Of a stretch of DNA of 32,000 nucleotides, positions 3,321-30,139 are shown piece after piece. How positions within the stretch are numbered: the stretch's first letter is position 1; the number at the start of each line of letters is the position of its first letter. The notes under the pieces are model-generated. The model did not search any database. It saw nothing but the letters and a program-made list of their open reading frames with translations, and was not told where the DNA came from. The position numbers and the translations under genes are program-made. The stretch is from assembly GCF_000981785.2 (NCBI RefSeq), contig NZ_CP011304.1:3840001-3872000 (forward strand), read 5' to 3'. Origin of the DNA: Microcystis aeruginosa NIES-2549 (lineage in GTDB: Bacteria > Cyanobacteriota > Cyanobacteriia > Cyanobacteriales > Microcystaceae).

Positions 3321-3530
3321 ATGACAATTACCCTAAAAGTGCCTAGTATTGCCTGTGAAGGTTGCGCTAATACCATTACTAAAGCGATTAATAATCAGCA
3401 ACCGGCAGCCCAAATATCGGTGGATGTAGCCAATAAAATCGTCACGGTAGAAACCACCGCATCCCGCGCAGAAATTGCCCAATGGATCAGCGAAGTCGGT
3501 CATACTGTTGAGTCTGGGAGTGAGAGTTGA
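3321..3530 (+). CDS. Heavy-metal-associated (HMA) domain protein, CopZ-like metallochaperone
   Basis: MTITLKVPSIACEGCANTITKAI carries the CxxC metal-binding loop of the HMA ferredoxin-like fold. About 69 aa from the ATG at 3321 (the ORF track begins at 3282). Confidence 0.8.
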   Translation: MTITLKVPSIACEGCANTITKAINNQQPAAQISVDVANKIVTVETTASRAEIAQWISEVGHTVESGSES

Positions 3531-4321
3531 CATCCTCCCCCTTTAAAAATAGACCTCAATTGGGTGCTTATTGTTTAGAGATTGTCTATGAACAACCATC
3601 CTTATCAAGTCAAGAGGGAGAAAGATATGCTTTTATCGATTTAGGCTTAAATAACCTAGCTGCTGTTACCTCTAATATTCCCGAATTTCAGCCAACTTTA
3701 GTATGTGGAAAAGCCTTAAAATCCTGCCATCAAAAGTACAACAAGACACTAGCTAAACTCAAATCGGAATTACCCAGTCTCCAGAAGACCAGTAAAAGAA
3801 TACAAGGTTTAACTTTAAAGCGTAATTGCCAGGTGGATTATTACCTCCACACCGCTAGTAAATATATTATTGATAAATTACTAGCTCATCAACTTAACCT
3901 TTTAGTTATTGGTCATAATCAAGGCTGGAAACAAAACATTAATATTGGAGATAGAAATAACCAGTCATTCGTAAATATTCCTCATTCAAGGTTTATCGAA
4001 CAACTTATCTATAAAGCAAATTTAGTAGGAATAGAGGTCAAAACAACTAATGAAAGCTATACCTCTAAATGTAGTTTCTTGGACTTAGAGTCTATTCAAA
4101 AGCAAAAAAGCTATTTAGGCAAGAGAATTAAAAGAGGACTATTCAGAAGCTCGTCGGGTTATTTCTATGGAGCAGATATTAATGGTTCCTTAAATATTGG
4201 AAGAAAGGTAGTCGGAGAGGCCGCCTTTAGCGGGAATCCGATAGAGAGGTTCGTAGTTAACCCAGTACGGGTCAAAGCGTACAAAGCTAATTCTAGATGC
4301 AATATTTGCGTACAGAATTAG
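3527..4321 (+). pseudogene. tnpB: IS200/IS605-family TnpB (OrfB) RNA-guided nuclease, N-terminally truncated remnant
   Basis: RuvC-like residues are retained (FIDLGLNNLA, TNESYTSKCS, GADINGSLNIGRK), but about 130-150 N-terminal residues expected of TnpB are missing. The frame opens on a TTG that overlaps the TGA of the HMA gene. No tnpA is adjacent. Confidence 0.8.
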
Positions 4322-9285: not shown

Positions 9286-9654
9286 ATGGGAGTTGATACT
9301 ATGTCTAACGAAACCGTTACCTATTCCCTAGAAGCTGTTTTGACTAGGATTGAGGGGAAAATTGACAATCTCCAAAAAGATGTTGACCAAAAATTTGAAA
9401 CTCTCCAAAAGGATTTTAACCAAAAATTTGACAGTTTCCAAAAAGATGTTGACCAAAAATTTGACAAAATCGACGAACGGTTAAATAAACTAGAGGTAGG
9501 ACAGGCAAAGTTAACCGAAAAGGTTGAGGGCATCGATAATCGCCTAAAATCAGTGGAAGGAACCCAAAAAAATCAGGTTTGGACATTGATTATTCTTTTG
9601 GCAAGTGCGATCGCTACTGCCGGTTGGAAAGTATTTTTTTCAGGTAATCCCTAG
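9286..9654 (+). CDS. Tail-anchored coiled-coil protein, paralog 1 (three 11-residue repeats). The likely true start is the ATG at 9301.
   Basis: LQKDVDQKFET / LQKDFNQKFDS / FQKDVDQKFDK hendecad repeats, then IDERLNKLE...VEGIDNRLKSVEG, then a C-terminal TM segment VWTLIILLASAIATAGWKVFF. GGAG lies 9 nt upstream of the ATG at 9301. Confidence 0.65.
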   Translation: MGVDTMSNETVTYSLEAVLTRIEGKIDNLQKDVDQKFETLQKDFNQKFDSFQKDVDQKFDKIDERLNKLEVGQAKLTEKVEGIDNRLKSVEGTQKNQVWTLIILLASAIATAGWKVFFSGNP

Positions 9655-9780: not shown

Positions 9781-10083
9781 ATGGGAGTTGATACTATGTC
9801 TAACGAAACCGTTACCTATTCCCTAGAAGCTGTTTTGACGAGGATTGAGGGGAAAATTGACAGTCTCCAAAAAGATGTTAACCAAAAATTTGACAAAATC
9901 GACGAACGGTTAAATAAGCTAGAGGTAGGACAGGCAAAGTTAACCGAAAAGGTTGAGGGCATCGATAATCGCCTAAAATCAGTGGAAGGAACCCAAAAAA
10001 ATCAGGTTTGGACATTGATTATTCTTTTGGCAAGTGCGATCGCTACTGCCGGTTGGAAAGTATTTTTTTCAGGTAATCCCTAG
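9781..10083 (+). CDS. Tail-anchored coiled-coil protein, paralog 2 (one 11-residue repeat). The likely true start is the ATG at 9796.
   Basis: Nearly identical to paralog 1 except for a 66-nt (22-codon) deletion of two repeat units. Confidence 0.65.
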   Translation: MGVDTMSNETVTYSLEAVLTRIEGKIDSLQKDVNQKFDKIDERLNKLEVGQAKLTEKVEGIDNRLKSVEGTQKNQVWTLIILLASAIATAGWKVFFSGNP

Positions 10084-10320: not shown

Positions 10321-10425
10321 AGATTCAGTGCATAAACAAAAATTCCGATAAGTACCTATTGCAGTAGGACTTCTCGGACGTTTGTATGTACTTAATTGTT
10401 TTTGGACATTTTTTCAAGGTTAATT

Positions 10426-11661
10426 ATGACTCAGATCACATCGGCTGTCAATGACGACGGCTACCGTTCCAGTGCTGACCTCGTACACTGTCAAAGACAA
10501 GATGAAGCGCAGACTTTAGCTTTCGCTGATTCGGCCACATCAGGAGCGAGAGTTTTTATTTGTCATGTTTACGAACAGGGGGGAAGAACTCATCTAGTTT
10601 TTTCTCTACCTTGTAGTCTGCTGATTGAATTGGCAAAATTACAGAGTGCTGAAGCTAAAAAGAATAAGTCTAATGCGGATGAAGTCATGAACAGACCACT
10701 TATTCTCCAGCACGTTAACGAGATTGCAAAGTATTTGCAAGATACGGATCAGTATATTTTGCCCCCATTCATCTTTAACTCGAATACACCGATCAAAGTT
10801 TTTACCTATGGTGCAGGTCCAGTCAAATTCGGTTATGCTGTTATGCCAATAGATGTAGAACTTTATGTTACTGACGGTCAACATCGGTTAAAAGCGATCG
10901 AAAAAGTTTTACCTGAAAAACCTGACTTGCGTAACGACAGCGTAACTGTGCTGGTAGTTCAAGAAGCAGATATGGATCAAATTCATCAAGATTTTGCCGA
11001 TTGTGCCAAAAATAAACCCATCCCTCCTGCTTTATTGGCTGCTTTCGACGTTACTGATCCTCTTGCTAAGTTGACTCGGACAATTACTAAAGATTTAGTC
11101 ATTTTCAATGGACGGATTGATAAAATCTCTCGTACTATCGGAAAAGACGCCAAATATATGTTTACTATGAGTCAGTTAAGAATCGGTGTCGCTGAATTTC
11201 TTTTTGGTTCATCTCGAAAACCAGTTATAGAATCTCATTCTCGTCAAAGTAAGAGTGAATTTTTGCTGATGTTAGAGAGATTAAAGATTTTTTACACAGA
11301 ATTCGCCAAAAACAATGATACTTGGCGACTTTTGCTACAACCCGCATCTCAAACGGTCAATCTCAACTTATACGATCTCAGACAACAGCGTGTGGATTTT
11401 AATACCGTTGGGTTTCAGGTACTTAGTCGAATTGGACATTTCATCTTTTTTGGACAAGAATTCACTGATTTACAGCGAGAAGCTCTAATTAAAGCACTTG
11501 CGGGTTTGGATTATACCCGTGACTCAGCTTTATGGCTAAATAGTATCGTGATTGATGATGCTGGTGCTAAAAAGATAGTTACACAGACAACAGCAGTCGA
11601 TAAAGCGTTTAAAATCGCCAGAGATGCTGTACAAGAGAAAACTGGGATAGTTTTAATCTAG
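10426..11661 (+). CDS. dndB: DGQHR-domain protein, DndB-like (ParB/sulfiredoxin-fold family)
   Basis: A VTDGQHRLKAIEKV motif plus the downstream IHQDFADCAKNKP motif typical of DndB-like proteins. The ATG at 10426 is preceded by aagg (the ORF track starts at a TTG at 10396). Confidence 0.8.
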   Translation: MTQITSAVNDDGYRSSADLVHCQRQDEAQTLAFADSATSGARVFICHVYEQGGRTHLVFSLPCSLLIELAKLQSAEAKKNKSNADEVMNRPLILQHVNEIAKYLQDTDQYILPPFIFNSNTPIKVFTYGAGPVKFGYAVMPIDVELYVTDGQHRLKAIEKVLPEKPDLRNDSVTVLVVQEADMDQIHQDFADCAKNKPIPPALLAAFDVTDPLAKLTRTITKDLVIFNGRIDKISRTIGKDAKYMFTMSQLRIGVAEFLFGSSRKPVIESHSRQSKSEFLLMLERLKIFYTEFAKNNDTWRLLLQPASQTVNLNLYDLRQQRVDFNTVGFQVLSRIGHFIFFGQEFTDLQREALIKALAGLDYTRDSALWLNSIVIDDAGAKKIVTQTTAVDKAFKIARDAVQEKTGIVLI

Positions 11662-11819
11662 TTTCGAGTAGATTTAGAGCAATTCAGTCTTATATACCTT
11701 CTGAAATCACAAGCAGAGATCGAGCAGTTTTGCTTTATCTCTCTTTTCCTGTGACTATTGATAGGTTTTACTAATTAGACATACAGTATAGAGAGGAGAA
11801 CTTTAAAAGCATATATGTA

Positions 11820-13421
11820 ATGACCGCAATCCAAACCTCTCTACTACCGAATCGTACTATTGATGAGTTCGTAGAAGATATTAAACTACTGACTCAAGAA
11901 GTACAAAAGCTCTACTGTTTAGATGAGATTCCTTGGATTATTGGTGTTTCTTGGGGAAAAGATAGTTCAGCAGTTTTACAGTTAATCTGGAATGCGATCG
12001 CTGCTTTACCATTAGAGAAGCGACAAAAAACTATTCATGTGATCACCACCGACACAATGGTTGAAAATCCCATTGTCTCCGCATGGGTTAGAAAGTCGAT
12101 GGAAAAGCTGGAAAAAGCTTCAGAAGCTCATAGAATGCCATTTAAATCACATTTACTCTATCCTGCTGTAGAAGATCGCTTTTGGAGTGGATTAATAGGT
12201 AAGGGTTATCCTGCTCCCCGTTTGAAATTTCGTTGGTGTACTGGAAGACTGAAAATTAACGCTTCTAATAACTTTATTCGTGAAGTCATCAGAAATTGTG
12301 GGGAAACAATATTAGTTTTGGGAATCCGCAAAACAGAAAGCTCTCGTCGTGCTAAGGTGATGGAAAAATTAGAAGCTAAAAGACTTCGTGAGCGTTTGAG
12401 TCCTAATGCAAATATGCCCAATTCTCTCGTTTATAGTCCGATCGAAGATTGGCGTACTGATGAAGTATGGATGTACTTAATGCAGTGGGAAAATCCCTGG
12501 GGAGGAGACAACAAAGAATTATTAGCAATGTATCGAGGAGCGACTGCGGATAATGAATGTCCCCTGGTGGTAGATACCTCCAGTCCTAGCTGTGGAAGTT
12601 CCCGTTTTGGTTGTTGGGTTTGTACTTTGGTAGATAAAGATACATCTCTGAGTATGATGGTTCAGAATGACCAAGAAAAGGAATGGTTACAACCACTCGT
12701 AGAACTTAGAAATGAATTAGACCTTTTGGATGATAGAGAGAGACGTGATTTCCGTCGTCTTGTTGGGAAAGTACAATTATTTGAAAGAAACTTAAATGGA
12801 GAAATATCGATCGAACCCATACCGGGACCCTATACTAAAAAATGGCGGGAATATTGGCTGAGAAGGGTATTAGAGGCCCAGGAGAGCGTGCGTACTAATG
12901 CCCCAGAGGATATGAAAGATATTACCCTAATTACCACGGAGGAACTCAGCGAAATTCGCCGGATTTGGAGGGAAGAAAAGCACGAATTTGATGACCAATT
13001 ACCGAAGATTTATAAACAAGTGACTGGAGAAACTTTTCAAGACCCGCGACCTGGAGCGGATAATAATCTTTTGGGGAGTGAAGAATGGGATATCCTCGCG
13101 GATATCTGTGCCGAGGATTCCATGCACCTAGAATTATTGGCTAAACTTATCGATACGGAACGTCAATATTTTCTCAAAATCTCTCGCAAGGGTATTTACA
13201 AAGACCTAGAAAAATGCTTTGAGTCTAGTTCTCGTAGTAAAGAGGAAGCGATCGAAAATGCTCGTTATGTCTATGATCTAAAGAATGCCGCTCAAAGTGG
13301 CAATATTGCTCAGGTGAAAGAACAACTCAAGGAGAGTTTTAGTGAACCGGAAAAAGACCCGCAAAAACAGTTAACTTGGGCCAGTATGAAATTCCCTACA
13401 ACCGATGAGGAGGAGGAATAA
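11820..13421 (+). CDS. dndC: DndC-like PAPS-reductase-fold PP-loop ATP pyrophosphatase with Fe-S cysteine cluster
   Basis: 533 aa. It has PP-loop VSWGKDSSAVLQLIW, GKGYPAPRLKFRWCTGRLKI and ECPLVVDTSSPSCGSSRFGCWVCT, the motif set I associate with DndC of DNA phosphorothioation systems. Confidence 0.88.
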   Translation: MTAIQTSLLPNRTIDEFVEDIKLLTQEVQKLYCLDEIPWIIGVSWGKDSSAVLQLIWNAIAALPLEKRQKTIHVITTDTMVENPIVSAWVRKSMEKLEKASEAHRMPFKSHLLYPAVEDRFWSGLIGKGYPAPRLKFRWCTGRLKINASNNFIREVIRNCGETILVLGIRKTESSRRAKVMEKLEAKRLRERLSPNANMPNSLVYSPIEDWRTDEVWMYLMQWENPWGGDNKELLAMYRGATADNECPLVVDTSSPSCGSSRFGCWVCTLVDKDTSLSMMVQNDQEKEWLQPLVELRNELDLLDDRERRDFRRLVGKVQLFERNLNGEISIEPIPGPYTKKWREYWLRRVLEAQESVRTNAPEDMKDITLITTEELSEIRRIWREEKHEFDDQLPKIYKQVTGETFQDPRPGADNNLLGSEEWDILADICAEDSMHLELLAKLIDTERQYFLKISRKGIYKDLEKCFESSSRSKEEAIENARYVYDLKNAAQSGNIAQVKEQLKESFSEPEKDPQKQLTWASMKFPTTDEEEE

Positions 13422-14291: not shown

Positions 14292-14405
14292 TGTGTGATA
14301 GGTTTAACTTAATTATAGAAGCGATCAATCTTTGTGTCCTTTGTGTCTTTGTGGTTCGTTCCACACCCCACACCCCACCAACAAACTTTTTCAGCAAACC
14401 CTAAG
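14292..14405 (+). repeat. Composite dispersed repeat: L module (tgtgtgata...ctttgtgtcctttgtgtctttgtggttcgttccac), (CACCCCA)n heptamers, R module (ccaccaacaaactttttcagcaaaccctaag)
   Basis: The L module recurs at 19769-19840 in the same orientation. The R module recurs inverted at 19638-19667. Confidence 0.75.
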
Positions 14406-18174: not shown

Positions 18175-18858
18175 ATGGCGAAAAAACCGAAAAATGTTGC
18201 GCGTAAACACCGGCATTGGCAAAGATGGTTAAAACTAACTCTGGTGGCAGTTTTTGGGTTTATTATCCTTAATTTAGCGACTAATTTAGCCATCTGCTGG
18301 TCAATTAATCAACAAAAACCCGTTGAGGCCATCTTAGTTTTGGGGGGCAGCATTCGTCGGGAAATTTATGTAGCCAATCTAGCCCAGCAATACCCCGATA
18401 TACCGATTTTAATTTCCCAAGGCTCGGAAGATCCCTGTATTTTATTACTATTTGAACGGGCAAAAGCACCAAAAACTAACGTCTGGTTAGAAAAGTGTGC
18501 TGATTCTACCTTCGGCAATTTTTTCTTTGCTGTGCCAATTTTAAAACAATGGGGAGTACATAAAGTAAAAGTTGTCACCTCTCCTACTCATTTACCCCGC
18601 GCTAAATGGTTAGCAGAAATTCACTTGCAATCCCACGGTATAGCAGTAGAAATAGATGCAGTCCGAGAAATTGGTATCCCGGGTAATAACGAATCAAAGC
18701 TAAAAACTGGGTTGGATGTGACTAGAAGTATAATTTGGGCTTTTGTCGGACAATTAATCTCTCCCCCCTGTTGGCAAGTCATCCCCTTAAATTCCGTTGA
18801 TTTAGAAGCTTGGCGCGATGAAGGTTTTAAATGTGAATATCAAGGTAAGATCAGGTAA
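18175..18858 (+). CDS. DUF218/YdcF(ElyC)-like membrane-anchored protein
   Basis: A basic N-terminus (MAKKPKNVARKHRHWQRW) is followed by a TM helix, then ILVLGGSIRREIYVA and VVTSPTHLPRA, typical of the YdcF-like fold. The ATG at 18175 is preferred over 18028, which lies inside a hairpin. Confidence 0.7.
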   Translation: MAKKPKNVARKHRHWQRWLKLTLVAVFGFIILNLATNLAICWSINQQKPVEAILVLGGSIRREIYVANLAQQYPDIPILISQGSEDPCILLLFERAKAPKTNVWLEKCADSTFGNFFFAVPILKQWGVHKVKVVTSPTHLPRAKWLAEIHLQSHGIAVEIDAVREIGIPGNNESKLKTGLDVTRSIIWAFVGQLISPPCWQVIPLNSVDLEAWRDEGFKCEYQGKIR

Positions 18859-18990
18859 ACAATCCTCTCCCAGTTAGTTTTTTAGCGGCTGTATCCCATT
18901 TTTGTAAATCTACTAACTTGGGGTTTTTAAAGGCAAACTCTCTCTTCCCACTTTCCTATACCTTTTAAACAGGATTGAGTATCAGAGGCC

Positions 18991-19635
18991 CTATCGGGTA
19001 TTTGCGATCGCATCTAGAGCCAAATTCAGTTTCAGCACGTTAACCCCCGGTTCGCCGAAGATGCCGAGAAAGCGATCATCGGTGTTTTTGGTAACGAGGA
19101 TCTCCACTTGATTCGTCGGTAATCCCCGCACCCGCGCCACCCGCTCGATCTGCGCTCTGGCGGCCTCTGGGGTGATATGGGGATCGAGACTCGATCCAGA
19201 GGTGTACACCAGATCCGCGGTGGGTTTAATTGCCGCTTTCTCTAATCGGGGAATCTCCCCCTCTACAGCTTTCGCTGGATCGGGATTGGGTTTTCCTTTA
19301 ATGCGATCGATCAATGCGGGGTTACTGGGAGCTAGGTTACTCGCACCCGAAATTCCGGTTTGCAGGACTTTGTTAGGATCGTTTTTCGGATCGGCCGTAC
19401 TGTAGGCGGTGGTACTCGGACGACTATTGAAATAGCGATCGCTGGTGAAAGGTTGCCCAATTAGAGCCGAACCCACCACTTGACCTTGATTATTAGTGAT
19501 CAAACTCCCGTTCGCTTGCCAGGGAAAAAGAATTTGACCGACGGCGATCATCGAGAAAGGATAGATCAGCGCGGTAATTACCCAGAGAACTAGGGTAGAA
19601 CGGATGGCTCTACCGGCATCGCGTGCAAAACTCAT
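18991..19635 (-). CDS. kdpC: K+-transporting P-type ATPase subunit C
   Basis: 214 aa. An N-terminal TM segment is followed by YPFSMIAVGQILFPWQANGSLI and SGSSLDPHITPEAA, which are KdpC hallmarks. Confidence 0.92.
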   Translation of the reverse strand: MSFARDAGRAIRSTLVLWVITALIYPFSMIAVGQILFPWQANGSLITNNQGQVVGSALIGQPFTSDRYFNSRPSTTAYSTADPKNDPNKVLQTGISGASNLAPSNPALIDRIKGKPNPDPAKAVEGEIPRLEKAAIKPTADLVYTSGSSLDPHITPEAARAQIERVARVRGLPTNQVEILVTKNTDDRFLGIFGEPGVNVLKLNLALDAIANTR

Positions 19636-19637
19636 AA

Positions 19638-19840
19638 TTAGGGTTTACTGAAAAAGTTTGTTGGTGGAGTTAGGAGTCAGGAGCCAGTAGTCAGGAGTCA
19701 GGAGAATTAGGAATAAACCACAATCAATGAAAGAGTCTATTTAGAGATTTTCTGGCTCTTCTAGGTTCTGTGTGATAAGTTTAACTTACAATATGATCGA
19801 TCGATCTTTGTGTCCTTTGTGTCTTTGTGGTTCGTTCCAC
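19638..19840. repeat. Composite repeat region: inverted R module (19638-19667), (GTCAGGA)n-like heptamers (about 19666-19705), L module (19769-19840)
   Basis: Shares modules with 14292-14405. The R module abuts the kdpC start codon. Confidence 0.75.
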
Positions 19841-19955
19841 CCCCTCGCTAGGGGCAATGTATCTTAGAATACATTTTACCCACCAAATCCAAGAGAGCCA
19901 TTTTCTGCTTTTTCCCATTTTTGAACTCTCAAAAATTAATTGTGCCAGAAATCTC

Positions 19956-20162
19956 TTAAAACCTCTCCGGGACAAAGATGACAAGGAATAGGTAGATAAA
20001 TAAAGCAAAGGCGACTAATCCTAAAAGGGTTAATGCGGAGGCTTGCCCCCTATTTATAGCACTTCCCGTAGAAGCTTGAACGATGGAGGAGAAAAGAATT
20101 GTTAGACAGAAATTTAAGAAAATATACCAGAAAAATCGGTATTTTCTAGGGGATGCTTTCAT
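19956..20162 (-). CDS. Small two-TM membrane protein with a KdpF-like C-terminal helix (kdpG position between kdpB and kdpC)
   Basis: The C-terminus LTLLGLVAFALFIYLFLVIFVPERF resembles the KdpF helix, which ends in PE(K/R)F. The gene lies inside the kdp gene string. Confidence 0.6.
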   Translation of the reverse strand: MKASPRKYRFFWYIFLNFCLTILFSSIVQASTGSAINRGQASALTLLGLVAFALFIYLFLVIFVPERF

Positions 20163-20240
20163 AAGAATTAGAGTTTTTTGGAGATTTGTTTTTGCCAGTC
20201 AATCAAGAAAATAGCTGTAGTTGTCAAAAATTATCAGACA

Positions 20241-20270
20241 CCCCCCTTATCAAGGGGGGATTAAGGGGGG
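20241..20270. repeat. G6/C6 hairpin repeat cccccc-ttatcaa-gggggg-attaa-gggggg
   Basis: Read directly. It sits between the methyltransferase stop and the kdpF-like gene. It looks like a small cyanobacterial repeat element. Confidence 0.5.
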
Positions 20271-20299
20271 ATCAAAGACAAAATCTATTTTCAATTTAA

Positions 20300-21523
20300 T
20301 TATAACCACTTACTTAGCTGTAGTTGTCGATAGGTTATCTTGTTTCCCTTTTTCAATTCATAGTTAAGAATACATTGGCCCACATATCTAGCCAAATTAA
20401 CAGGGACAGCATTGCCAATCATTTGTTCTAGATTAGATTTTGTTCCTGTAAAAATAAAGTCTTTAGGAAAAGTTTGAATATAGCTTCGCTCCCTCGTTGT
20501 TAGCGGTCTTAATTTTTCCTTGAGATGACAAGCATCACCGGGATGTTGTCGATAGGTTTTGGGAACTGGTCGATTTACTCCTCGAATAGTAGGGCTAGGT
20601 TCATAAATACTGAATATCGCCCTTCTTTGATAGCTTCTAGGATGTCTATAATAGTATTCTATATCTAATTCTTTGCCCATATAGTCAAATACAGTCAGAG
20701 GTTGACTTGATAAATTGTTATTGATTTCATCGATTAAAAAATCATCTTCTTCGTTCATTTTACCGATCAAAAAATATCTTTTTCTAGTTTGAGTAACTCC
20801 GCAGTAACAAGAATTAATAACTTTTCCAGTTAAACCATAACCATGTCTTTTAAAAACTTGTTTTGCCTGAGTGAGTATTTTACTTTTCTCAATTCTGTCC
20901 ACATTTTCCATAACAAACCATTGGGGACTTACTCCAGTTACAATTTCAGCGAATGTGAGCGTTAGATTCGCTCGTCCTAAACCCTCGTCTCTCTTACCCG
21001 CACTGGAAAAGTCTTGACAAGGAGGGCTGCCGACAATAATCTCAGGATTATATTGAGCCAATATTTCTTGATTAGATTCTCTAGATAAATCGACATTAAA
21101 TATCGGATGACTAAAGTTATTTCTATAGACATCTATAGCAGGTATCCAATTATCAAATGCGGCCACAATAGTAAACCCTGCTTTCTGAAAACCTAAAGAT
21201 AAACCACCACAACCAGCGAATAAATCGATTGTGATCATTTTGCTCCCTCCCCTAAATTGACTCTCGAAAGCATAAAATAAATTATCGGAATTGGGAGCTA
21301 GACCGTATAACTCTTTTGTACTTAACTCAGCAGGTTGAACTTTTAAATTTTCATCGAGTTTCAGATATATATTTTTCATTCCTTTCCCATCCAAGTAAGC
21401 GCACAAAGAAGCTGGAAATGAGGAGTTAAATTGATTTTTAACCCATGTTTCTTTTTGGGTAAAATCCCGATTCGAGTGCTTCAATCCGAATAAACTAGGC
21501 TTAAATATTGCCGATTTTCCCAT
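20300..21523 (-). CDS. DNA (cytosine-5) methyltransferase with a ~95-aa non-MTase N-terminal extension
   Basis: Motif I is IDLFAGCGGLSLGF, motif IV GSPPCQDFS, motif VI MENV, motif VIII QTRKRYFLIG, motif IX RPLTTRERSYIQTFPKDF and motif X GNAVPVNLARYVG. An alternative start is the ATG at 21238, preceded by GGAGGGAG. Confidence 0.92.
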   Translation of the reverse strand: MGKSAIFKPSLFGLKHSNRDFTQKETWVKNQFNSSFPASLCAYLDGKGMKNIYLKLDENLKVQPAELSTKELYGLAPNSDNLFYAFESQFRGGSKMITIDLFAGCGGLSLGFQKAGFTIVAAFDNWIPAIDVYRNNFSHPIFNVDLSRESNQEILAQYNPEIIVGSPPCQDFSSAGKRDEGLGRANLTLTFAEIVTGVSPQWFVMENVDRIEKSKILTQAKQVFKRHGYGLTGKVINSCYCGVTQTRKRYFLIGKMNEEDDFLIDEINNNLSSQPLTVFDYMGKELDIEYYYRHPRSYQRRAIFSIYEPSPTIRGVNRPVPKTYRQHPGDACHLKEKLRPLTTRERSYIQTFPKDFIFTGTKSNLEQMIGNAVPVNLARYVGQCILNYELKKGNKITYRQLQLSKWL

Positions 21524-23682
21524 TACCTCAACCCGATCGCTGAAATTATCTCATCAATAATCTTAATAGCAATAAACGGCGCAATCATGCCTCCCACGCC
21601 GTAGATGAGGATATTGCGCCGCAATAGTTGGTCAGCAGTGAGCGGGCGAAATTGAACGCCTTTAAGTGCTAGGGGAATCAAAACGGGGATAATCAGGGCA
21701 TTGTAGATCAGGGCCGAGACGATCGCCGATTGAGCGCTTTTCAAACCCATGATATTTAAAGCACCGATCCCGGCAGCGGCGAAAATCGTCGGGATAATGG
21801 CGAAATACTTAGCGATATCGTTAGCTACCGAAAACGTGGTCAGGGCGCCGCGGGTAATTAATAACTGTTTGCCGATGGTCACTAAATCGATCAGCTTGGT
21901 CGGGTCGGAATCGAGGTCCACCATATTGGCAGCCTCCTTCGCCGCTTGGGTTCCGGAGTTCATTGCCACACCGACATTAGCCTGGGCCAGTGCCGGTGCG
22001 TCGTTGGTTCCGTCTCCCGTCATGGCAACTAACTTGCCCTTGGCTTGCTCGCGACGGATCACCTCGATCTTATCTTCCGGGGTGGCCTCGGCGATAAAAT
22101 CATCCACCCCCGCCTCCGCCGCGATCACCGCCGCCGTGATCTGGTTGTCGCCAGTGAGCATGATCGTTCTCACACCCATGCGCCGTAATTGGTCAAAACG
22201 CTCTTTTAATCCAGGTTTCACGATGTCTTTGAGATAAATAACCCCGTAGATATCGTTACCCCGACAGACGGCCAGGGGAGTCCCCCCCAAACGGGAAACC
22301 CTTTCCTGTGCCTGATCGAGGCTGGCGGGAACGGAACCCCCCCTAGAACGGACGAAACCTTTAATCGCTTCTACGGCCCCCTTGCGGTATTCCTCACCGT
22401 CCCTATCGGTGCCGCTCATGCGGGTACGAGCCGAGAATGGGACTCCCTCGCCGGGTTGACCATCGATATCGAGGTTTGCGCCCAAATTCCGGGCTAAGGC
22501 AACGATCGAGCGTCCTTCCGGGGTTTCGTCGAAAAGGCTGGCCGCTAGACAGACGCGGGCTAATTCCTCGAGGTTATGACCGTTGGCCGGGATAAATTCA
22601 TCAGCCAGCCGGTTGCCGAGGGTGATTGTTCCCGTTTTGTCGAGAAGGAGGGTATTTACGTCACCGCAGGCTTCCACCGCACGCCCAGAGGTGGCGATGA
22701 CGTTAAACTGAGCCACGCGATCCATGCCGGCGATACCGATCGCGCTCAATAAACCGCCGATCGTCGTGGGAATGAGGGCCACGAGAAGCGAGATCAAGAT
22801 GGCGATACTGGAACCGGCCCGAAAAGTATCCGCGACCGCCGGACCGAGGCTCGTTTCCAGGAAACCGGCGATATAGTTCCCGATCGAGGGAATCGTGGCC
22901 ACGACAATTAAAAAGACTTGGGTTAACACGGCCAGAAGTACCGTCAGCGCGATCTCGTTGGGGGTTTTCCTGCGCTCGGCCCCTTCCACAAGGGAGATCA
23001 TGCGATCGATAAAACCCCGGCCGGGATCTTGAGTGATCCGCACTGTCAACTCGTCCGAGAGAAGCCGCGTACCACCGGTGACGGAACTGGCGATGTCAGT
23101 GCCGGGTTGTTTGAGGACGGAGGCCGATTCTCCAGTGATCGCCGATTCATCCACCGAACCGATTCCCTCGATCACTTCCCCGTCGGCGGGAATCACGTCC
23201 CCGGCCACCAGTTTCACCCGATCGCCCCGATGCAAGGCCGTGGAACTGACCGACTCGATCGATCCGTCGGCCAGGATTTTTCTGGCGATCGTGTCGCTGC
23301 GGGTCGATCGCAGGGCATCGGCCTGGGCTTTTCCCCGTCCCTCGGCGATCGCCTCGGCGAAGTTGGCGAACAGCACCGTGAAGAAGAGTATGAGGGTGAT
23401 GATGCCGTTAAGTAGCCGTTGTTGTCCCCTATCACCGGCGATCGTGCCGAATAGATGCGGGTCGATCGTCACCAGGGCCGTGACGATTGTTCCCAACCAG
23501 ACCACGAATAGGACCGGGTTACGCACGGCGATGCGCGGGTCGAGTTTGAGGAAGGACTGCCGGATCGCGCTTTGATAGAGACCGGTCCGGTTGACCTTGG
23601 GGGTGTGGTGGCGGTCGTCCCGGCGACCTCTCGGCACTCGCAACGGGCGGGGGGACTTAGAATTTCCTTTGTTCGTTCTCAT
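21523..23682 (-). CDS. kdpB: K+-transporting P-type ATPase subunit B
   Basis: 719 aa. It has the DKTGTIT phosphorylation site, [21 protein letters not shown] and an N-terminal [11 protein letters not shown] motif. Confidence 0.97.
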
Positions 23683-23697
23683 AAATTATCTAAACTC

Positions 23698-25443
23698 CTA
23701 GCCGATCATCCTGGTGATTTGAAAGGCTTCCGCGATCGGCCCGAGGGCTAATATCGGCAAGAAAGTGAGCGCACCGAGAATTAAAATCACCCCCGCCGTT
23801 ACGCCAGTAAAGAGTCCGGTATCGGTGCGGAGGGTTCCGGTGGTGGCGGGAACCGGTTGTTTGCGGGACATCCCATCGGCTAACAAGAGCAGGGCCGCGA
23901 TCGGGATATACCGTCCGGCCAGTAAACTAAAGGAGGCGCTCAGATTCCACCAGAGAGCGGTCATCGTCGGTTTCGCCCCAGATGCGATCGCAAGCGGTGC
24001 GGGTTGGGAGTCCCCCAGTCCCTCGAATCCCGACCCGTTATTGGCGGCGGCGGAAGCGTACTCGTAGATAACTTGAGATAATCCGTGAAAGCCGGGGTTA
24101 CTGATGCCCCGAAAGTCGGGAAAGGCAAGGGCGATCGCTCCGGGGATGAGGATGGCGATCGGGTGAACCAGCAGAATTAAAAAACTCGCTAACACCACTT
24201 CCCGCTTCTCGATTTTGCGCCCGAACAATTCGGGGGTTCTTCCCACCATTAGCCCGGTGACGAATACCGCCAGGATCAGATAGGCGAACAGGTAGGCGGT
24301 GCCGGTTCCCTGGCCGCCGAAGACGATTTGCAGGAACAGATTCGAGAGGGTGGCGAAGCCGCCGTTCGGCATCAAGGAATCGTGCATAGCGATCACCGCA
24401 CCGCACATGGTGGCCGTGGTAGTCACTGCGTACAGGGCTGATTGCGCCCAACCGAAGCGCACTTCTTTCCCCTCGAAGTTAACCGCTCGATCGACCCCTA
24501 GCAGGGAGTTAACCGCCGGGTTGCCGTTATATTCTCCGATCGCTGTGATGATCGTAAAGCCGATGAAGATACCGAGGGGAATTAGATAGATTAATCGAGC
24601 CTGCTTGAGATTATCGGCGAAAACCCCGTAGGTATAGATCAGGGAGGTGGGAATCGAGAGAATAGCAACTAATTGCACCAGATTGACGAATCCGTTCGGG
24701 TTTTCCAAGGGGTGGGCCGAGTTGCTGGCAAAAAAGCCGCCGCCGTTTTCTCCCAATTCCTTAATAATCTCAAAGTGGGCCACTGGACCGCGGGCGATCG
24801 CCTGACTGAGGTTGGGGTTTTCTAGCGTCGGCAAGATCGCCGGGCCCGCGAGGGTTTCCGGGACTCCAGCGATGATCAGGGCAATTGCCCCCACGATCGA
24901 GATCGGTAAGAGGATACGGGTGATCGCTCGGATCAGATCCACATAAAAATTGCCCAACGGTCGCCCCGTCAGTCCCCGAATAAAGGCGATCCCCACCGCT
25001 AGACCGGTTCCGGCCGAGGTGAACATCTGGTAGCCGAGACCCCAGATCTGACTCGCGTAGCTGAGGGTGGTTTCCCCGGAATAATGCTGTTGGTCGCTGT
25101 TGGTGATAAAGGAAATCGTTGTATGTAGCGTGGTGTCCCAAGTGGGGGCGGGGATCCCCGTCGGGTTGAGGGGAAGGACTCCTTGGCCCGCAATCAGGGA
25201 AAAAACCAGAATTGCTATTACCGCGTTACTGTAGAGAACGGCGCGGAGGTACTGCCAGCCAGTCATATTCTCTTTCCCTTTCACCCCGACGAAGCTGTAA
25301 AGAAGACTCTCGGCTCGATCGCACAGTGGGTCGAGCAGGGTTCTCTGTTCCATGAAAACCCTCGCCATATACCGCCCGAAAAAGGGGGTGATTGCCACGA
25401 TTATCAGGATCGTGAGCGCGATTTGAATCCATCCTTGCAACAT
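23698..25443 (-). CDS. kdpA: K+-transporting ATPase subunit A (channel-like subunit)
   Basis: 581 aa, polytopic. The N-terminus [30 protein letters not shown] and the overall pattern match KdpA. Confidence 0.97.
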
Positions 25444-25595
25444 GGTTCGATCAACTCCGAAAAAGACCAGTGGTCATTGAGCTTGTGGAAATGTGGCCGA
25501 TCATGGACGGTGAGCTTGTCGAATCCGTCGATGATCGACCTGAAAAATCACGGGTTCGCTGTCTCGAAACCACTTGAGAAAACCAAGTTTGTCTA

Positions 25596-25612
25596 ATCAT
25601 TAGCGATCATTA
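25596..25612. promoter_or_regulatory. Direct repeat ATCATTA-gcg-ATCATTA (10-bp period) about 155-170 nt upstream of the kdpA ATG
   Basis: Read directly. The geometry resembles OmpR/KdpE-type direct-repeat sites, but no consensus match is claimed. Confidence 0.2.
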
Positions 25613-25616
25613 ACAA

Positions 25617-25859
25617 GTGGATGATCGAGGGATTATTATCGCCTCTGCTGGGATGATTATAGCGATTTCTTGCGCTTTGACAATCTATATTTTTTCTGTT
25701 CTTTATCCTGTCAGCTTTTACGCACTTATGCAGAAATACGGACAATCAGCCATTATCGGTGACTCTTGGGCTTTTAGGTCAGCAGTGGCTGAACAAACAG
25801 GAATAATTATCCAAACGCCATCGCAATTTATGCCTTTATTTAGAAAACGGGTTTCTTGA
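25617..25859 (+). CDS. Doubtful 80-aa hydrophobic ORF
   Basis: It has a GTG start, no clear RBS and no recognised domain, and it ends inside a palindrome. It may be non-coding. Confidence 0.25.
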   Translation: MDDRGIIIASAGMIIAISCALTIYIFSVLYPVSFYALMQKYGQSAIIGDSWAFRSAVAEQTGIIIQTPSQFMPLFRKRVS

Positions 25860-25874
25860 AGAAACCCGTTTTCT
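25842..25874. terminator. Perfect 16-bp palindrome agaaaacgggtttctt-g-aagaaacccgttttct, a possible bidirectional terminator
   Basis: Read directly. Both arms contain T or A runs. Confidence 0.5.
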
Positions 25875-26055
25875 GTATATGGTAGTCTTGAAAAATTCGG
25901 GATTGTTCGCACAAAATAATTGGAACAATGGTCTCAATAATTTTCTCTATTAAGTGAACCAAACAGAGGAAAAATGTTCAGAACTAAGCTGTTAATAATT
26001 TAAATCGGCGGGCAGCTTACTAAACGTTTTTTCTCCCCCGATGGCTTTTTTGAGT

Positions 26056-26146
26056 CAGTCCCGATGAAAAAATTTTCACCCCCACAGATGAAAGAGGTTT
26101 CTTTCCCTACACCCCACACCCCACACCCCACACCCTACACCCTCTT
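26056..26146 (+). repeat. Copy B of the ~90-nt dispersed element with (CCCCACA)n, intergenic
   Basis: Near-identical to 16541-16625. Confidence 0.9.
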
Positions 26147-26244
26147 TCCAGTCAGAGGGGGTAAGGATTGATGATATTCAATCCCCCCGGCTACGATCGA
26201 ATTATCTTAATCTGTAAGGGGAAGTTGCCAAAAAGGAGACAATT

Positions 26245-27360
26245 GTGCGACGGGGAAGACATAAAATTTTTATCGGTATGGCCCCGGGGGTCGGGAAAAC
26301 TTACAAGATGCTCGAGGAGGGGCATAGCCTCAGAAAGCAGGGAACCGACGTGGTGATTGGACTGCTTGAAACCCACGGACGGAAAGAGACCGCCGAAAAA
26401 GCCGAGGGATTGGAAATCCTACCGAGAAAAATCCTAGAAAAAGAGGGATTCACTCTCTCGGAAATGGATACGGAAGCGATTATCGCCCGCTCACCGCAGC
26501 TGTGTCTCATCGATGAATTGGCCCACACCAATGCACCCGGTTCGGAGCGAGAGAAACGTTTTCAGGACGTGGAGATAATTTTATCCCGGGGAATCGATGT
26601 TTACTCGACCGTGAATATCCAGCATATCGAGAGTTTAAACGATCTGGTTGCCCGAATCACTGGGGTGGTGGTGCGAGAGCGAATACCCGATCGAATTTTG
26701 GAGGAAGCTGATGAAGTGATTGTGGTAGATGTTACCGCCGAAACCCTAGAGGAAAGATTATTAGCGGGAAAAATCTACGCTCCCGAAAAGATCGAACAAT
26801 CTTTAAATAATTTCTTTCAACGGCGCAATTTAATCGCCCTCCGGGAACTCGCCCTGCGGGAAGTGGCCGATACAGTAGAAGAAGAAGCGAGTAATTCGAC
26901 ATTTATCGGTCAATCCTGTCCCATTCACGAACGAGTATTAGTCTGTATTTCCACCTATCCCAACTCTTTACGATTATTACGTCGGGGAGCGCGGATAGCG
27001 GGGTATATGAACGCGGAATTTTTCGTGATTTTCGTCGATAAACCCGATCGCTTTCTCACCAAAGAGGAGGCTTTACATATCGAAACCTGCGAACGTTTAT
27101 GTCGGGAATTCGAGGGGAAATTCTTAAGGATTAAAAGCTATCAGGTGGCCGCAGCGATCGCGGAAGTGGCCGAACGGGAACGGATCACCCAGATTGTGAT
27201 CGGGGAGAGCCTTCAATCGCGCTGGAAGCATTTAATCAAAGGTTCTTTCACCCAAAAACTCATGCGCCTGATCTGGCAGAAAAATATCGATCTTCACATC
27301 ATCGCCACCGATCCAAAAGTATCAATTAAAGACGCGCAAGCCAAGGGGATGAAAAGGTGA
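26245..27360 (+). CDS. kdpD: Short KdpD: KdpD N-terminal sensor domain plus USP-like domain, with no TM or histidine kinase part
   Basis: The GTG start is preceded by AAGGAG. KIFIGMAPGVGKTYKMLEEGHSLRKQG and VIGLLETHGRKET match the KdpD N-terminal domain. 371 aa, like the truncated cyanobacterial KdpD. Confidence 0.9.
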   Translation: MRRGRHKIFIGMAPGVGKTYKMLEEGHSLRKQGTDVVIGLLETHGRKETAEKAEGLEILPRKILEKEGFTLSEMDTEAIIARSPQLCLIDELAHTNAPGSEREKRFQDVEIILSRGIDVYSTVNIQHIESLNDLVARITGVVVRERIPDRILEEADEVIVVDVTAETLEERLLAGKIYAPEKIEQSLNNFFQRRNLIALRELALREVADTVEEEASNSTFIGQSCPIHERVLVCISTYPNSLRLLRRGARIAGYMNAEFFVIFVDKPDRFLTKEEALHIETCERLCREFEGKFLRIKSYQVAAAIAEVAERERITQIVIGESLQSRWKHLIKGSFTQKLMRLIWQKNIDLHIIATDPKVSIKDAQAKGMKR

Positions 27361-28717: not shown

Positions 28718-29959
28718 CTAGGTAGTGTACTCGGCATTAATTTTGACGTAATCGTAACTAAGATCGCAACCCCAGGCCGTACCTGTTCCCGAACCGTTAC
28801 CGATACAGATAGACATTAAAACGGTATCTTCTCGTAAATAAGCCCCGCTTGCTGCCGCTTTCAGGTAATTACTGGCACTAGCTCGATCGAACGCCAGAGG
28901 TTGACCATTTTCCATCATCACGAAGTCGCCTAACTTGATTTGCAGGTCTTCTTGATGGAAGACAACCCCGGCCCGGCCTGCCGCCGCCGCAATTCGTCCC
29001 CAGTTGGGATCTCGACCGAAAACCGCCGATTTTACTAAGGAAGAACCGGCAATGGTGCGAGCAATCTGACGAGCGGACTGATCATCGGCCGCCCCCGAAA
29101 CCCGCACTTCTATTAAACAGGTGGCTCCTTCCCCATCCCGGGCGATCGCTTTAGCCAAGTATTGACAAACTTCCGTTAACATGGCCTCTAACTTTTGGGC
29201 ATCCCGGCCCATTTCTGTGATCGCCGTGGTGCGCGATTGACCGTTAGCCAAGGCGATCAGACTGTCATTGGTACTGGTGTCCCCATCCACCGTAATCTGA
29301 TTAAAACTTTTATTAGCCGCCCGACTTAACATATTTTGCCAGAGAACCGTCGATACTGCGGCATCACAGGTAATAAAGGAGAGCATCGTCGCCATATTCG
29401 GGTGAATCATCCCCGATCCCTTGGCAATTCCCCCAATTGTGACCGGACGACCATCGATAGTGGTTTGCAAGGCGATCGATTTGGGGACTAGATCCGTGGT
29501 CATAATCGCCCGGGCCGTGCTTTCGCCGCCATTTTCCGACAATAAACCCGCTAAGGTCGGTAAAGCGGCGGTTAACGCATCCATGCGAATCCGTTGCCCG
29601 ATCACTCCCGTAGAAGCCAGCAAAATTGCATCGGCGGGAATCCCTAAAACTTGGCTCAAGGCGGCGGCACTATCGAGGGCATCTTGCCATCCGGCTTCCC
29701 CCGTGGCGGCGTTTGCTTGGCCGGCATTACACAAAATCGCCCTGGCGCTGGCTTTAGTTTGTAGGCGTTGACGGCAATAATCGACGCAAGCGGCCCGCAC
29801 TTGACTGGTGGTAAAGACTCCTGCGGCGATCGCTTCTGTTTCCGAGACAATTAGGGCTAAATCGGGCAAACCGGACGGTTTTAGCCCCGCGGCCATCCCT
29901 GCGGATTTAAATCCTTTTGGGGCCGTGATCCCCCCCTCTATTTCCTGCCAATCGGCCAT
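28718..29959 (-). CDS. argJ: Bifunctional ornithine acetyltransferase / N-acetylglutamate synthase
   Basis: It has GITAPKGFKSAG and the ATMLSFITCDA autoprocessing site. The likely start is the ATG at 29959, preceded by GGGAGA. The ORF track extends to 30091. Confidence 0.93.
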   Translation of the reverse strand: MADWQEIEGGITAPKGFKSAGMAAGLKPSGLPDLALIVSETEAIAAGVFTTSQVRAACVDYCRQRLQTKASARAILCNAGQANAATGEAGWQDALDSAAALSQVLGIPADAILLASTGVIGQRIRMDALTAALPTLAGLLSENGGESTARAIMTTDLVPKSIALQTTIDGRPVTIGGIAKGSGMIHPNMATMLSFITCDAAVSTVLWQNMLSRAANKSFNQITVDGDTSTNDSLIALANGQSRTTAITEMGRDAQKLEAMLTEVCQYLAKAIARDGEGATCLIEVRVSGAADDQSARQIARTIAGSSLVKSAVFGRDPNWGRIAAAAGRAGVVFHQEDLQIKLGDFVMMENGQPLAFDRASASNYLKAAASGAYLREDTVLMSICIGNGSGTGTAWGCDLSYDYVKINAEYTT

Positions 29960-30139
29960 TTTCTCCCGTCTCCTACTCAAATTCGACACTCGATTATAGC
30001 AAGTAAAAAGCCAAAAATTAGCAAAGGGTTTGACCGTTTCGGGTTGGGAAGTGGGGAAAAAAGGCCGACGGCTGATAATTCCTGGCTGCAAATTAGCCTA
30101 AAATACGATTAATTGGCCAGAATTTTGGAGAGATAGTTT

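Follow-up and report, generated by a model that had tools for sequence, protein, structure and literature searches.

The kdp operon of Microcystis aeruginosa NIES-2549 very probably harbours the relic of a Type II restriction-modification cassette

The stretch of Microcystis aeruginosa NIES-2549 DNA analysed here (32,000 nt of contig NZ_CP011304.1; hereafter the window) contains a kdp operon in which an open reading frame (ORF) that is not a kdp gene lies between kdpB and a kdpF-like ORF. An initial annotation described it as an orphan C5 DNA methyltransferase (MTase) inserted into the operon, with a start codon overlapping the kdpB stop codon, and proposed that, if it is co-transcribed with kdpAB, cytosine methylation would be tied to K+ limitation or osmotic stress. 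This raises the question of whether the operon holds an epigenetic regulator or something else. We conclude that the ORF is very probably the relic of a Type IIP restriction-modification (R-M) cassette of the BsaHI/HgiDI/HindVP family, with the restriction endonuclease (REase) gene preceding the MTase gene. The anatomy of the ORF, a deletion within it, intact alleles in sister strains and the family assignment are documented below.

The ORF at 20300-21523 on the minus strand was confirmed, with 407 codons, as was the minus-strand order kdpA, kdpB, ORF, kdpF-like, kdpC. The ATG of the ORF (21523-21521) and the TAA of kdpB (21525-21523) do share A21523. The resulting TAATG stop/start overlap was present and invariant across the aligned Microcystis loci, and the kdpB/ORF junction, AGGTAATGG, was identical in all of them. 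Pfam searches showed that the ORF is a chimera with a REase part (residues 27-97) and a C5-MTase part (residues 98-385). The REase part matched positions 1-71 of the 332 positions of the RE_HindVP profile (PF09519; E = 8e-20), and the MTase part matched positions 3-322 of the 324 positions of PF00145 (E = 1.4e-63), a complete C5-MTase domain. The MTase has an ATG of its own at 21238-21236 behind the Shine-Dalgarno sequence GGAGG at 21250-21246, and free-standing homologues of 309-316 aa begin at the same point with MI(T/A)IDLFAGCGG. Because the ORF thus splits into a REase part and a MTase with an internal ATG, the ATG that overlaps the kdpB stop is, judged from the sequence, the start codon of an endonuclease gene fragment and not of the methylase; the start codon and the overlap had both been assigned to the wrong gene. 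A PDB sequence search with the 95-aa N-terminus of the ORF returned nothing meaningful (best E 1.9), and an exact look-up of the 407-aa protein found no record. Public annotation of the ORF is inconsistent: it goes under 'DNA cytosine methyltransferase' in some cases and under 'HindVP family restriction endonuclease' in others.

We collected 12 Microcystis loci (L003-L014) by scanning species-representative genomes with the N-terminal fragment and 5 more (L088-L092) by scanning metagenomes with the small KdpF-like protein. L009 is M. aeruginosa W13-11, L010 is M. novacekii and L012 is Microcystis sp. LSC13-02; L091 is the same contig as L009. The contig of L014, binned as a 'Rhizobium sp.' metagenome-assembled genome, carries Microcystis kdpA-kdpB and the REase remnant at 93-98% amino acid identity and is most likely a mis-binned Microcystis contig. 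Four independent genomes (L009, L010, L012 and L088) contain an intact REase gene of 366 codons at the same site. This gene starts at the AGGTAATGG junction with kdpB, its TGA overlaps the MTase ATG (ATGA), and its product matches PF09519 over all 332 positions with 480 bits (L009 and others). The intact REases of L009, L010 and L012 contain the motifs GLEIKL (ExK) and LLSPERRFD (SPERRFD); ExK has been proposed to be catalytic in BsaHI, and mutagenesis showed that SPERRFD is needed for BsaHI activity (PMC2413257). The window copy, which matches PF09519 over part of its length, is a gene fragment that is 88-93% identical to the first 90 residues of the four intact REases; both motifs are missing from it, and it carries G28V in a WGKNQF motif that is otherwise invariant in the family.

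Alignment of the window with the intact alleles revealed one gap of 812 bp flanked by the direct repeat AATTTA, with GAGAGTC-AATTTA-CGCC at one end and TTGTTT-AATTTA-GAGGAGGG at the other. The ExK and SPERRFD motifs both lie within these 812 bp. REase codons 91-361 are gone, and behind the junction only the last 15 nt of the gene remain, which read EEGAK followed by the overlapping TGA in the intact alleles. The MTase ATG lies 1097 nt after the REase ATG in the intact alleles, in frame +2, and the loss of 812 nt (812 mod 3 = 2) leaves 285 nt, which is in frame. Because the loss brings the two genes into one frame, 90 REase codons, 5 linker codons (RGGSK) and the MTase now form one ORF. The same 812-bp AATTTA junction was found in the window and in L001-L008, L011, L013, L090 and L092, which points to a single deletion event that would since have spread. 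The deletion allele is in the majority, with at least 12 of about 18 Microcystis loci. In exact-sequence clusters, the intact REase has 174 members and the MTase/fusion cluster 648, the latter mixing 405/407-aa fusions with free-standing 310-aa MTases. Source names in these clusters include 'HindVP family restriction endonuclease', 'DNA cytosine methyltransferase' and 'modification methylase HaeIII'.

The arrangement is that of a Type II R-M system, with REase and MTase adjacent on the same strand: the remnant stands directly upstream of the MTase in the window, and intact pairs stand there in four strains. The statement that no restriction endonuclease is adjacent was therefore mistaken, since the 5′ quarter of the ORF is a truncated REase gene, whose intact counterpart lies at this position in sister strains. 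The orphan label survives in the sense that no functional partner now adjoins the MTase, but this is not a primary orphan; it is the survivor of an R-M pair whose REase has been deleted. The same MTase beside a REase at this position, the arrangement named at the outset as the mark of an ordinary R-M remnant, occurs in 4 of the roughly 18 independent loci from Microcystis.

The family assignment also bears on what the MTase would recognize. Motifs I (FAGCGG), IV (PPCQ), VI (ENV), VIII (QTRKR), IX and X (GNAVP) are readable in the translation, and the ORF matched TIGR00675 with 148 bits. HindVP has been grouped with the characterised systems BsaHI, HgiDI and HgiGI, for REase and MTase alike; this BsaHI group, which includes the putative Nostoc punctiforme and Spirulina systems NpuORFC228P and SplZORFNP, recognises GRCGYC, and M.BsaHI methylates the central C (PMC2413257). 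The target-recognition domain (TRD; residues 165-245), which contains YYYRHPRSYxRRxxFSxxEPSPTIRGVNRP, was as conserved (0.60) as the core (0.59-0.61) among 62 MTases beside HindVP REases. Its TI motif lies at residues 217-218, compared with TI217 in M.BsaHI, and is preceded 11 residues upstream by an Arg that is followed by Ala; Gly or Ala has been described close to the Arg position upstream of TI (PMC2413257). GRCGYC itself occurs at 2 sites in the 32 kb, against 18.8 +/- 4.5 expected (~9-fold depletion). Because many palindromes are depleted in the window, we also examined the non-palindromic members GACGCC/GGCGTC, which occur once against 9.4 expected and rank 7th lowest of 879 comparable hexamer pairs. 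On the basis of family membership, TRD conservation and site depletion, GRCGYC is the likely target of the MTase, with M.BsaHI and M.HgiDI compared by description only. A GGCC specificity, which the name 'modification methylase HaeIII' in some database entries would imply, found no support; M.HaeIII aligns over the catalytic motifs only and not over the TRD. As for other palindromes, 64 palindromic hexamers are expected 3.3-18 times in the window, and 18 of them do not occur at all (e.g., TTCGAA, 0 against 18); CGATCG is 9.4-fold over-represented. This pattern is in keeping with a heavy R-M load and HIP1-type repeats in the genome.

The same pair of genes is common outside Microcystis. In 63 of the 68 non-Microcystis loci retrieved with the REase fragment, a HindVP-family REase is directly followed by a MTase of this family; in these 63 loci the REase is full-length, the MTase follows within 0-120 nt, and it is 55-68% identical to that of the window. 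The 68 loci span Cyanobacteria, Bacteroidota, Acidobacteriota, Planctomycetota and other phyla, and none of them is adjacent to kdp genes. P-type ATPase matches near two of them (L055 and L070) were considered as kdpB and rejected, being only 25-30% identical and several kb away.

The closest non-Microcystis KdpB proteins (82-85% identity) are those of Oscillatoria sp. FACHB-1407, Pantanalinema and Synechocystis sp. LKSZ1; their loci (L083, L084 and L086) have the order kdpA-kdpB-kdpF-like-kdpC-kdpD, with 18-44 nt from kdpB to the small gene, and no R-M genes were found in these three kdp clusters. The cassette is thus no component of the kdp system, being missing from the kdpABGCD clusters of the relatives. 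All kdp loci retrieved from Microcystis contain the cassette, or what is left of it, between kdpB and the kdpF-like gene. These comparisons support the initial suggestion of an insertion into the operon, and the borders of the cassette look altered: the last ~9 residues of Microcystis KdpB (EIISAIGLR) are unlike the ...(A/V)(L/I)DL(I/M)L(P/S)... of the relatives, and the Microcystis KdpF-like protein is 25 residues shorter at its N-terminus than those of other cyanobacteria. Because both sides look altered, the insertion probably took the place of the extreme 3′ end of kdpB, the spacer and the beginning of the small gene. The intact alleles are tightly packed, with six genes, the TAATG and ATGA overlaps, about 40 nt from the MTase to the kdpF-like gene and 5 nt from the latter to kdpC. 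In the gene nomenclature of the Anabaena and Synechocystis type of operon, kdpA-kdpB-kdpG-kdpC(-kdpD), the KdpF-like ORF occupies the kdpG position. The Microcystis operon resembles that type in its genes and their order, in the KdpF-like ORF between kdpB and kdpC and in a truncated KdpD (KdpD and Usp domains); it differs in the R-M cassette, the shorter small ORF, the altered KdpB tail, the divergent kdpD and the presence of strain-variable insertions resembling miniature inverted-repeat transposable elements (MITEs).

The base composition of the locus had been taken to mark the MTase as foreign. The difference is real (57.5% GC in kdpB and 35.7% in the MTase part), but its direction is the reverse. 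GC content at third codon positions (GC3) is 0.26 for the MTase, 0.33 for the REase remnant and 0.31 for the intact REase of L009, compared with 0.25-0.46 for the ordinary genes of the window and 0.69, 0.67, 0.54, 0.53 and 0.53 for kdpA, kdpB, kdpC, kdpD and argJ, respectively. It is the kdp genes that stand out in composition, and the cassette looks host-like. One might read this, together with the presence of the cassette in all Microcystis kdp loci seen, as a sign that the R-M genes arrived with a horizontally acquired kdp cluster instead of entering a resident operon. We consider this very unlikely: the GC3 of the cassette is low where that of kdpAB is high, no cassette occurs in the closest kdp operons (85% KdpB identity), and both insertion borders look altered. 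Moreover, synonymous divergence among Microcystis is 0.08-0.10 for the cassette, about half of the 0.17-0.23 for kdpA/B/C. The GC3-rich genes lie at 21523-25443, 18991-19635, 26245-27360 and 28718-30091, the last being argJ. In Synechocystis sp. LKSZ1 (L084), kdpABGCD-thiC-argJ are colinear, and in Microcystis kdpD diverges from kdpA; the GC3-rich kdp/argJ genes may reflect an old transfer or the inversion of a syntenic block.

Within Microcystis, the cassette occurs in several further states of decay. In L089, a 1.3-kb insertion with a DDE transposase gene interrupts the REase gene near codon 52; in L011, codon 73 of the REase remnant is a stop, and in L013 and L092 the remnant carries an additional 190-bp insertion. 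Damage to the MTase is restricted to alleles without REase: stops at aa 111 in L006 and aa 145 in L013, insertions in L090 and an interruption after residue ~62 in L005. Because losing the MTase before the REase is lethal, the order REase then MTase is the one expected for a Type II R-M pair. Solitary MTases arise through loss of the cognate REase, and the present case is alike in that the REase went first and the MTase persists and later decays in some lineages; it differs in that the loss is visible at base resolution, as 812 bp between AATTTA repeats, and in that a chimeric ORF was made. In cyanobacteria, REases appear and disappear rapidly, and GrCGyC MTases are widespread (PMC4390886).

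These alleles also bear on whether the MTase is a genuine orphan regulator coupled to kdpB, with methylation tuned by K+ limitation or osmotic stress. The stop/start overlap kept in all loci and a MTase that is intact in the window, with a ratio of nonsynonymous to synonymous substitution rates (dN/dS) of about 0.2, would suit such a role. However, that overlap starts the truncated endonuclease, the MTase has its own Shine-Dalgarno sequence and ATG, and the intact pairs at the same site indicate that the original function was restriction-modification. A regulator of this kind should be intact across the clade without dependence on a REase; the MTase has REase partners in other strains, and its nonsense codons or insertions in four strains (L005, L006, L013 and L090) are unexpected of a conserved regulator, so that its repeated loss in sister strains argues against a conserved regulatory role. 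We regard the orphan regulator as improbable.

Another possibility is that the in-frame fusion is a selected novelty, in which the 95-residue extension adds a property (e.g., dimerisation, DNA binding or kdpB-coupled synthesis) that made the deletion allele common. The allele is indeed frequent, both among the loci and in the mixed 648-member cluster compared with the 174 intact REases; dN/dS of the remnant is 0.24, natural C5 MTases such as Dcm have an extension of roughly 90 aa (the catalytic domain aligns from position 90 of PRK10458), and independent fusions of a REase N-terminus to a MTase were found in P0011 and P0012 (50 aa) and in P0025 (172 aa). A protein search detects in-frame fusions alone, however, which makes this recurrence an ascertainment effect. 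The remnant is broken by the stop in L011 and the 190-bp insertion in L013 and L092, the start of the MTase has been retained, and the window copy carries G28V in the family-invariant WGKNQF. Among distinct variants, nonsynonymous and synonymous changes number 23 and 15 in the deleted alleles, against 8 and 8 in the intact ones. Selection for the fusion is, in our view, very unlikely.

Reading the ORF as the relic of a GRCGYC-specific R-M cassette leaves three observations on the other side. Many other palindromes are depleted in this genome as well as GRCGYC; the genome was seen over 32 kb, and a second cognate REase could lie elsewhere in it; and the REase remnant shows no sign of faster decay than the MTase, with dN/dS of 0.24 for both when compared directly (0.21-0.24 for the MTase overall). 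Such equal values may mean that the deletion is recent or that the remnant is weakly constrained. Taken as a sequence of events, the relic would have arisen when a two-gene R-M cassette inserted behind kdpB and ahead of the kdpF-like gene in the kdp operon of Microcystis, after which the deletion between the AATTTA repeats removed most of the REase and fused its 90-codon stub in frame to the MTase. Synthesis of the MTase would continue from its own Shine-Dalgarno sequence and ATG, perhaps alongside a longer form with an N-terminal extension whose translation is coupled to that of kdpB, and the MTase would methylate the inner C of GRCGYC. Because the kdpF-like gene and kdpC lie downstream, it would be transcribed at least partly on the kdp message, and, lacking a restriction partner, it would be an evolutionary leftover heading to loss.

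Because the cassette is wedged between kdpB and the genes of downstream kdp subunits, we also considered its expression. In the intact alleles, the dense packing of the six genes leaves no space for obvious signals. On the minus strand, the interval from kdpB to kdpC yielded no terminator-like site. The kdpF-like ORF and kdpC, downstream of the cassette, evolve under purifying selection; transcription must therefore either start at the kdp promoter and cross the cassette or begin anew within it. Both observations would also suit an orphan regulator. Read-through from kdpAB is plausible from the sequence. The best promoter-like site of the region, a candidate kdp promoter, lies about 210 nt upstream of kdpA. 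Another promoter-like candidate, TTGCTA-16-TG-GATAAT in the AT-rich 3′ end of kdpB, lies 22 nt upstream of the ATG of the REase remnant, has a counterpart in L009 that scores 10/12 and could give kdp-independent expression, which speaks against the orphan regulator. An R-M pair would need such expression because the MTase must precede the REase. An Rfam scan of 18800-26400 (E <= 0.1) gave no match to an RNA family, so that no riboswitch was identified in the kdp leader. Cassette expression might nevertheless rise with kdp induction: in intact strains, a REase coupled to KdpB would boost restriction at GRCGYC under K+ limitation, and in deletion strains the 407-aa isoform would be made only when kdpB is translated, so that methylation would be condition-dependent. 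We consider this unlikely, and a K+-linked methylation or restriction phenotype is not required by anything seen here.

Compared with BsaHI, HgiDI and HgiGI, the Microcystis cassette shares the REase family PF09519, with ExK and SPERRFD in the intact alleles, and a C5 MTase partner of about 310 aa with TI at about residue 217 and Arg 11 residues upstream. Cyanobacterial members of this group have been listed before (PMC2413257). It differs from them in that the window REase is cut to 90 codons and fused to the MTase, in that GRCGYC is deduced here, and in its location in a kdp operon, which is reported for none of those systems. According to a review that cites genome comparisons by the Kobayashi group, R-M units insert into operon-like gene clusters as mobile units (PMC2993543). 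The present cassette is like these units in consisting of two genes without recognisable carrier element in a conserved operon, with related genomes that lack the unit; it differs in being fixed genus-wide and tightly packed, with stop/start overlaps upstream, and in showing all stages of decay in the population.

The cassette itself is an ordinary R-M type; what is unusual is its position in the kdp operon and its genus-wide fixation. What had appeared to be an operon-embedded orphan epigenetic regulator very probably is a decaying selfish R-M cassette, and its value lies in this correction and in the clean example that it offers. One fixed site displays every decay stage, namely the intact pair, the microhomology deletion, the REase disrupted by an insertion sequence (IS) and the MTase with nonsense codons or insertions, and is a convenient natural series for the study of R-M turnover in a bloom-forming cyanobacterium. 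Microcystis is known for its heavy R-M load (PMC8262939). The site would also reveal whether a defence system is driven through the transcription of a stress-inducible operon. In the literature on Microcystis that mentions kdpB, kdp or the methylome, we found no description of this arrangement. The features of the locus are compiled in Table 1.

Table 1. Features of the kdp locus in the window, with coordinates in window numbering.
Feature	Position	Strand	Evidence or remark
407-codon ORF	20300-21523	minus	between kdpB and kdpF-like ORF
HindVP/BsaHI-family REase gene remnant, codons 1-90 of 366	21254..21523	minus	PF09519 1-71/332
Deletion junction, single AATTTA left of two direct repeats	21253..21258	minus	alignment with intact alleles
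Last 15 nt of former REase gene, RGGSK in the MTase frame	21239..21253	minus	contains GGAGG
Intact C5 DNA MTase, 312 aa, M.BsaHI/M.HgiDI family	20300..21238	minus	PF00145; predicted target GRCGYC
kdpA	23698..25443	minus	PF03814, E 6e-213; GC3 0.69; dN/dS 0.125 among Microcystis
kdpB	21523..23682	minus	TIGR01497, 1092 bits; dN/dS 0.11
KdpF-like small membrane ORF, 68 aa	19956..20162	minus	PF09604, E 1.3e-7, C-terminal match
kdpC	18991..19635	minus	PF02669, E 7e-67; dN/dS 0.13
Truncated kdpD, KdpD and Usp domains only	26245-27360	plus	divergent, upstream of kdpA
Candidate kdp promoter, TTGTCA-16-TATAAT	25656..25683	minus	best of the region
Candidate promoter-like site, TTGCTA-16-TG-GATAAT	21545..21572	minus	AT-rich kdpB 3′ end
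MITE-like insertion, 89 nt	20226..20314	minus	14-bp target duplication GACAACTACAGCTA (20315-20328, 20212-20225)
Composite of dispersed repeats, 320 nt, strain-variable	19636..19955	minus	kdpF-like ORF to kdpC

The 3′ end of the MTase has been modified by the MITE-like insertion, which supplies its last 4 codons and stop, turns the C-terminal ...LQLFS into ...LQLSKWL and contains a hairpin (CCCCCC/GGGGGG). Other strains have 1-3 copies of the 36-nt unit of this MITE, GATCCCCCCTTAATCCCCCCTTGATAAGGGGGGTGT, and L009 and L004 have none. The hairpin was rejected as a terminator of the MTase gene, having a fold z-score of -1.3 and no U-run directly following. The 320-nt composite between the kdpF-like ORF and kdpC contains CTCCTGACT- and CACAAAG-type motifs; it is absent in L003, L004 and L009, where the gap is 5 nt, and partial copies occur elsewhere, e.g., at 14292-14404 of the window. 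A copy of ~100 nt of the same MITE family lies between kdpA and kdpB in M. novacekii (L010, 2672-2794), and MITEs seem to have hit the spacers between kdp genes repeatedly. In Microcystis sp. T1-4 (L011), neither a kdpF-like gene nor kdpC was found within 9 kb downstream of the MTase (past 11218), and the kdp operon appears to be broken by rearrangement. A 49-aa ORF upstream of kdpA (25451-25600) was rejected as kdpF, being not hydrophobic and without Pfam match.

Elsewhere in the window, 10396-13421 contains a DndB-family gene (PF14072, E 5e-70) and, behind it, a gene for a DndC-like protein of 533 aa with a PAPS-reductase domain; the two may form a DNA-modification or defence pair. Tandem paralogous small ORFs of 122 and 100 aa lie at 9286-9654 and 9781-10083; their N- and C-termini are identical, with unequal numbers of QKDVxQKFD-type repeats, and both have a hydrophobic segment towards the C-terminus. 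A truncated TnpB/IS605 OrfB-like ORF (PF01385 and PF07282) at 3527-4321 is probably an IS remnant.

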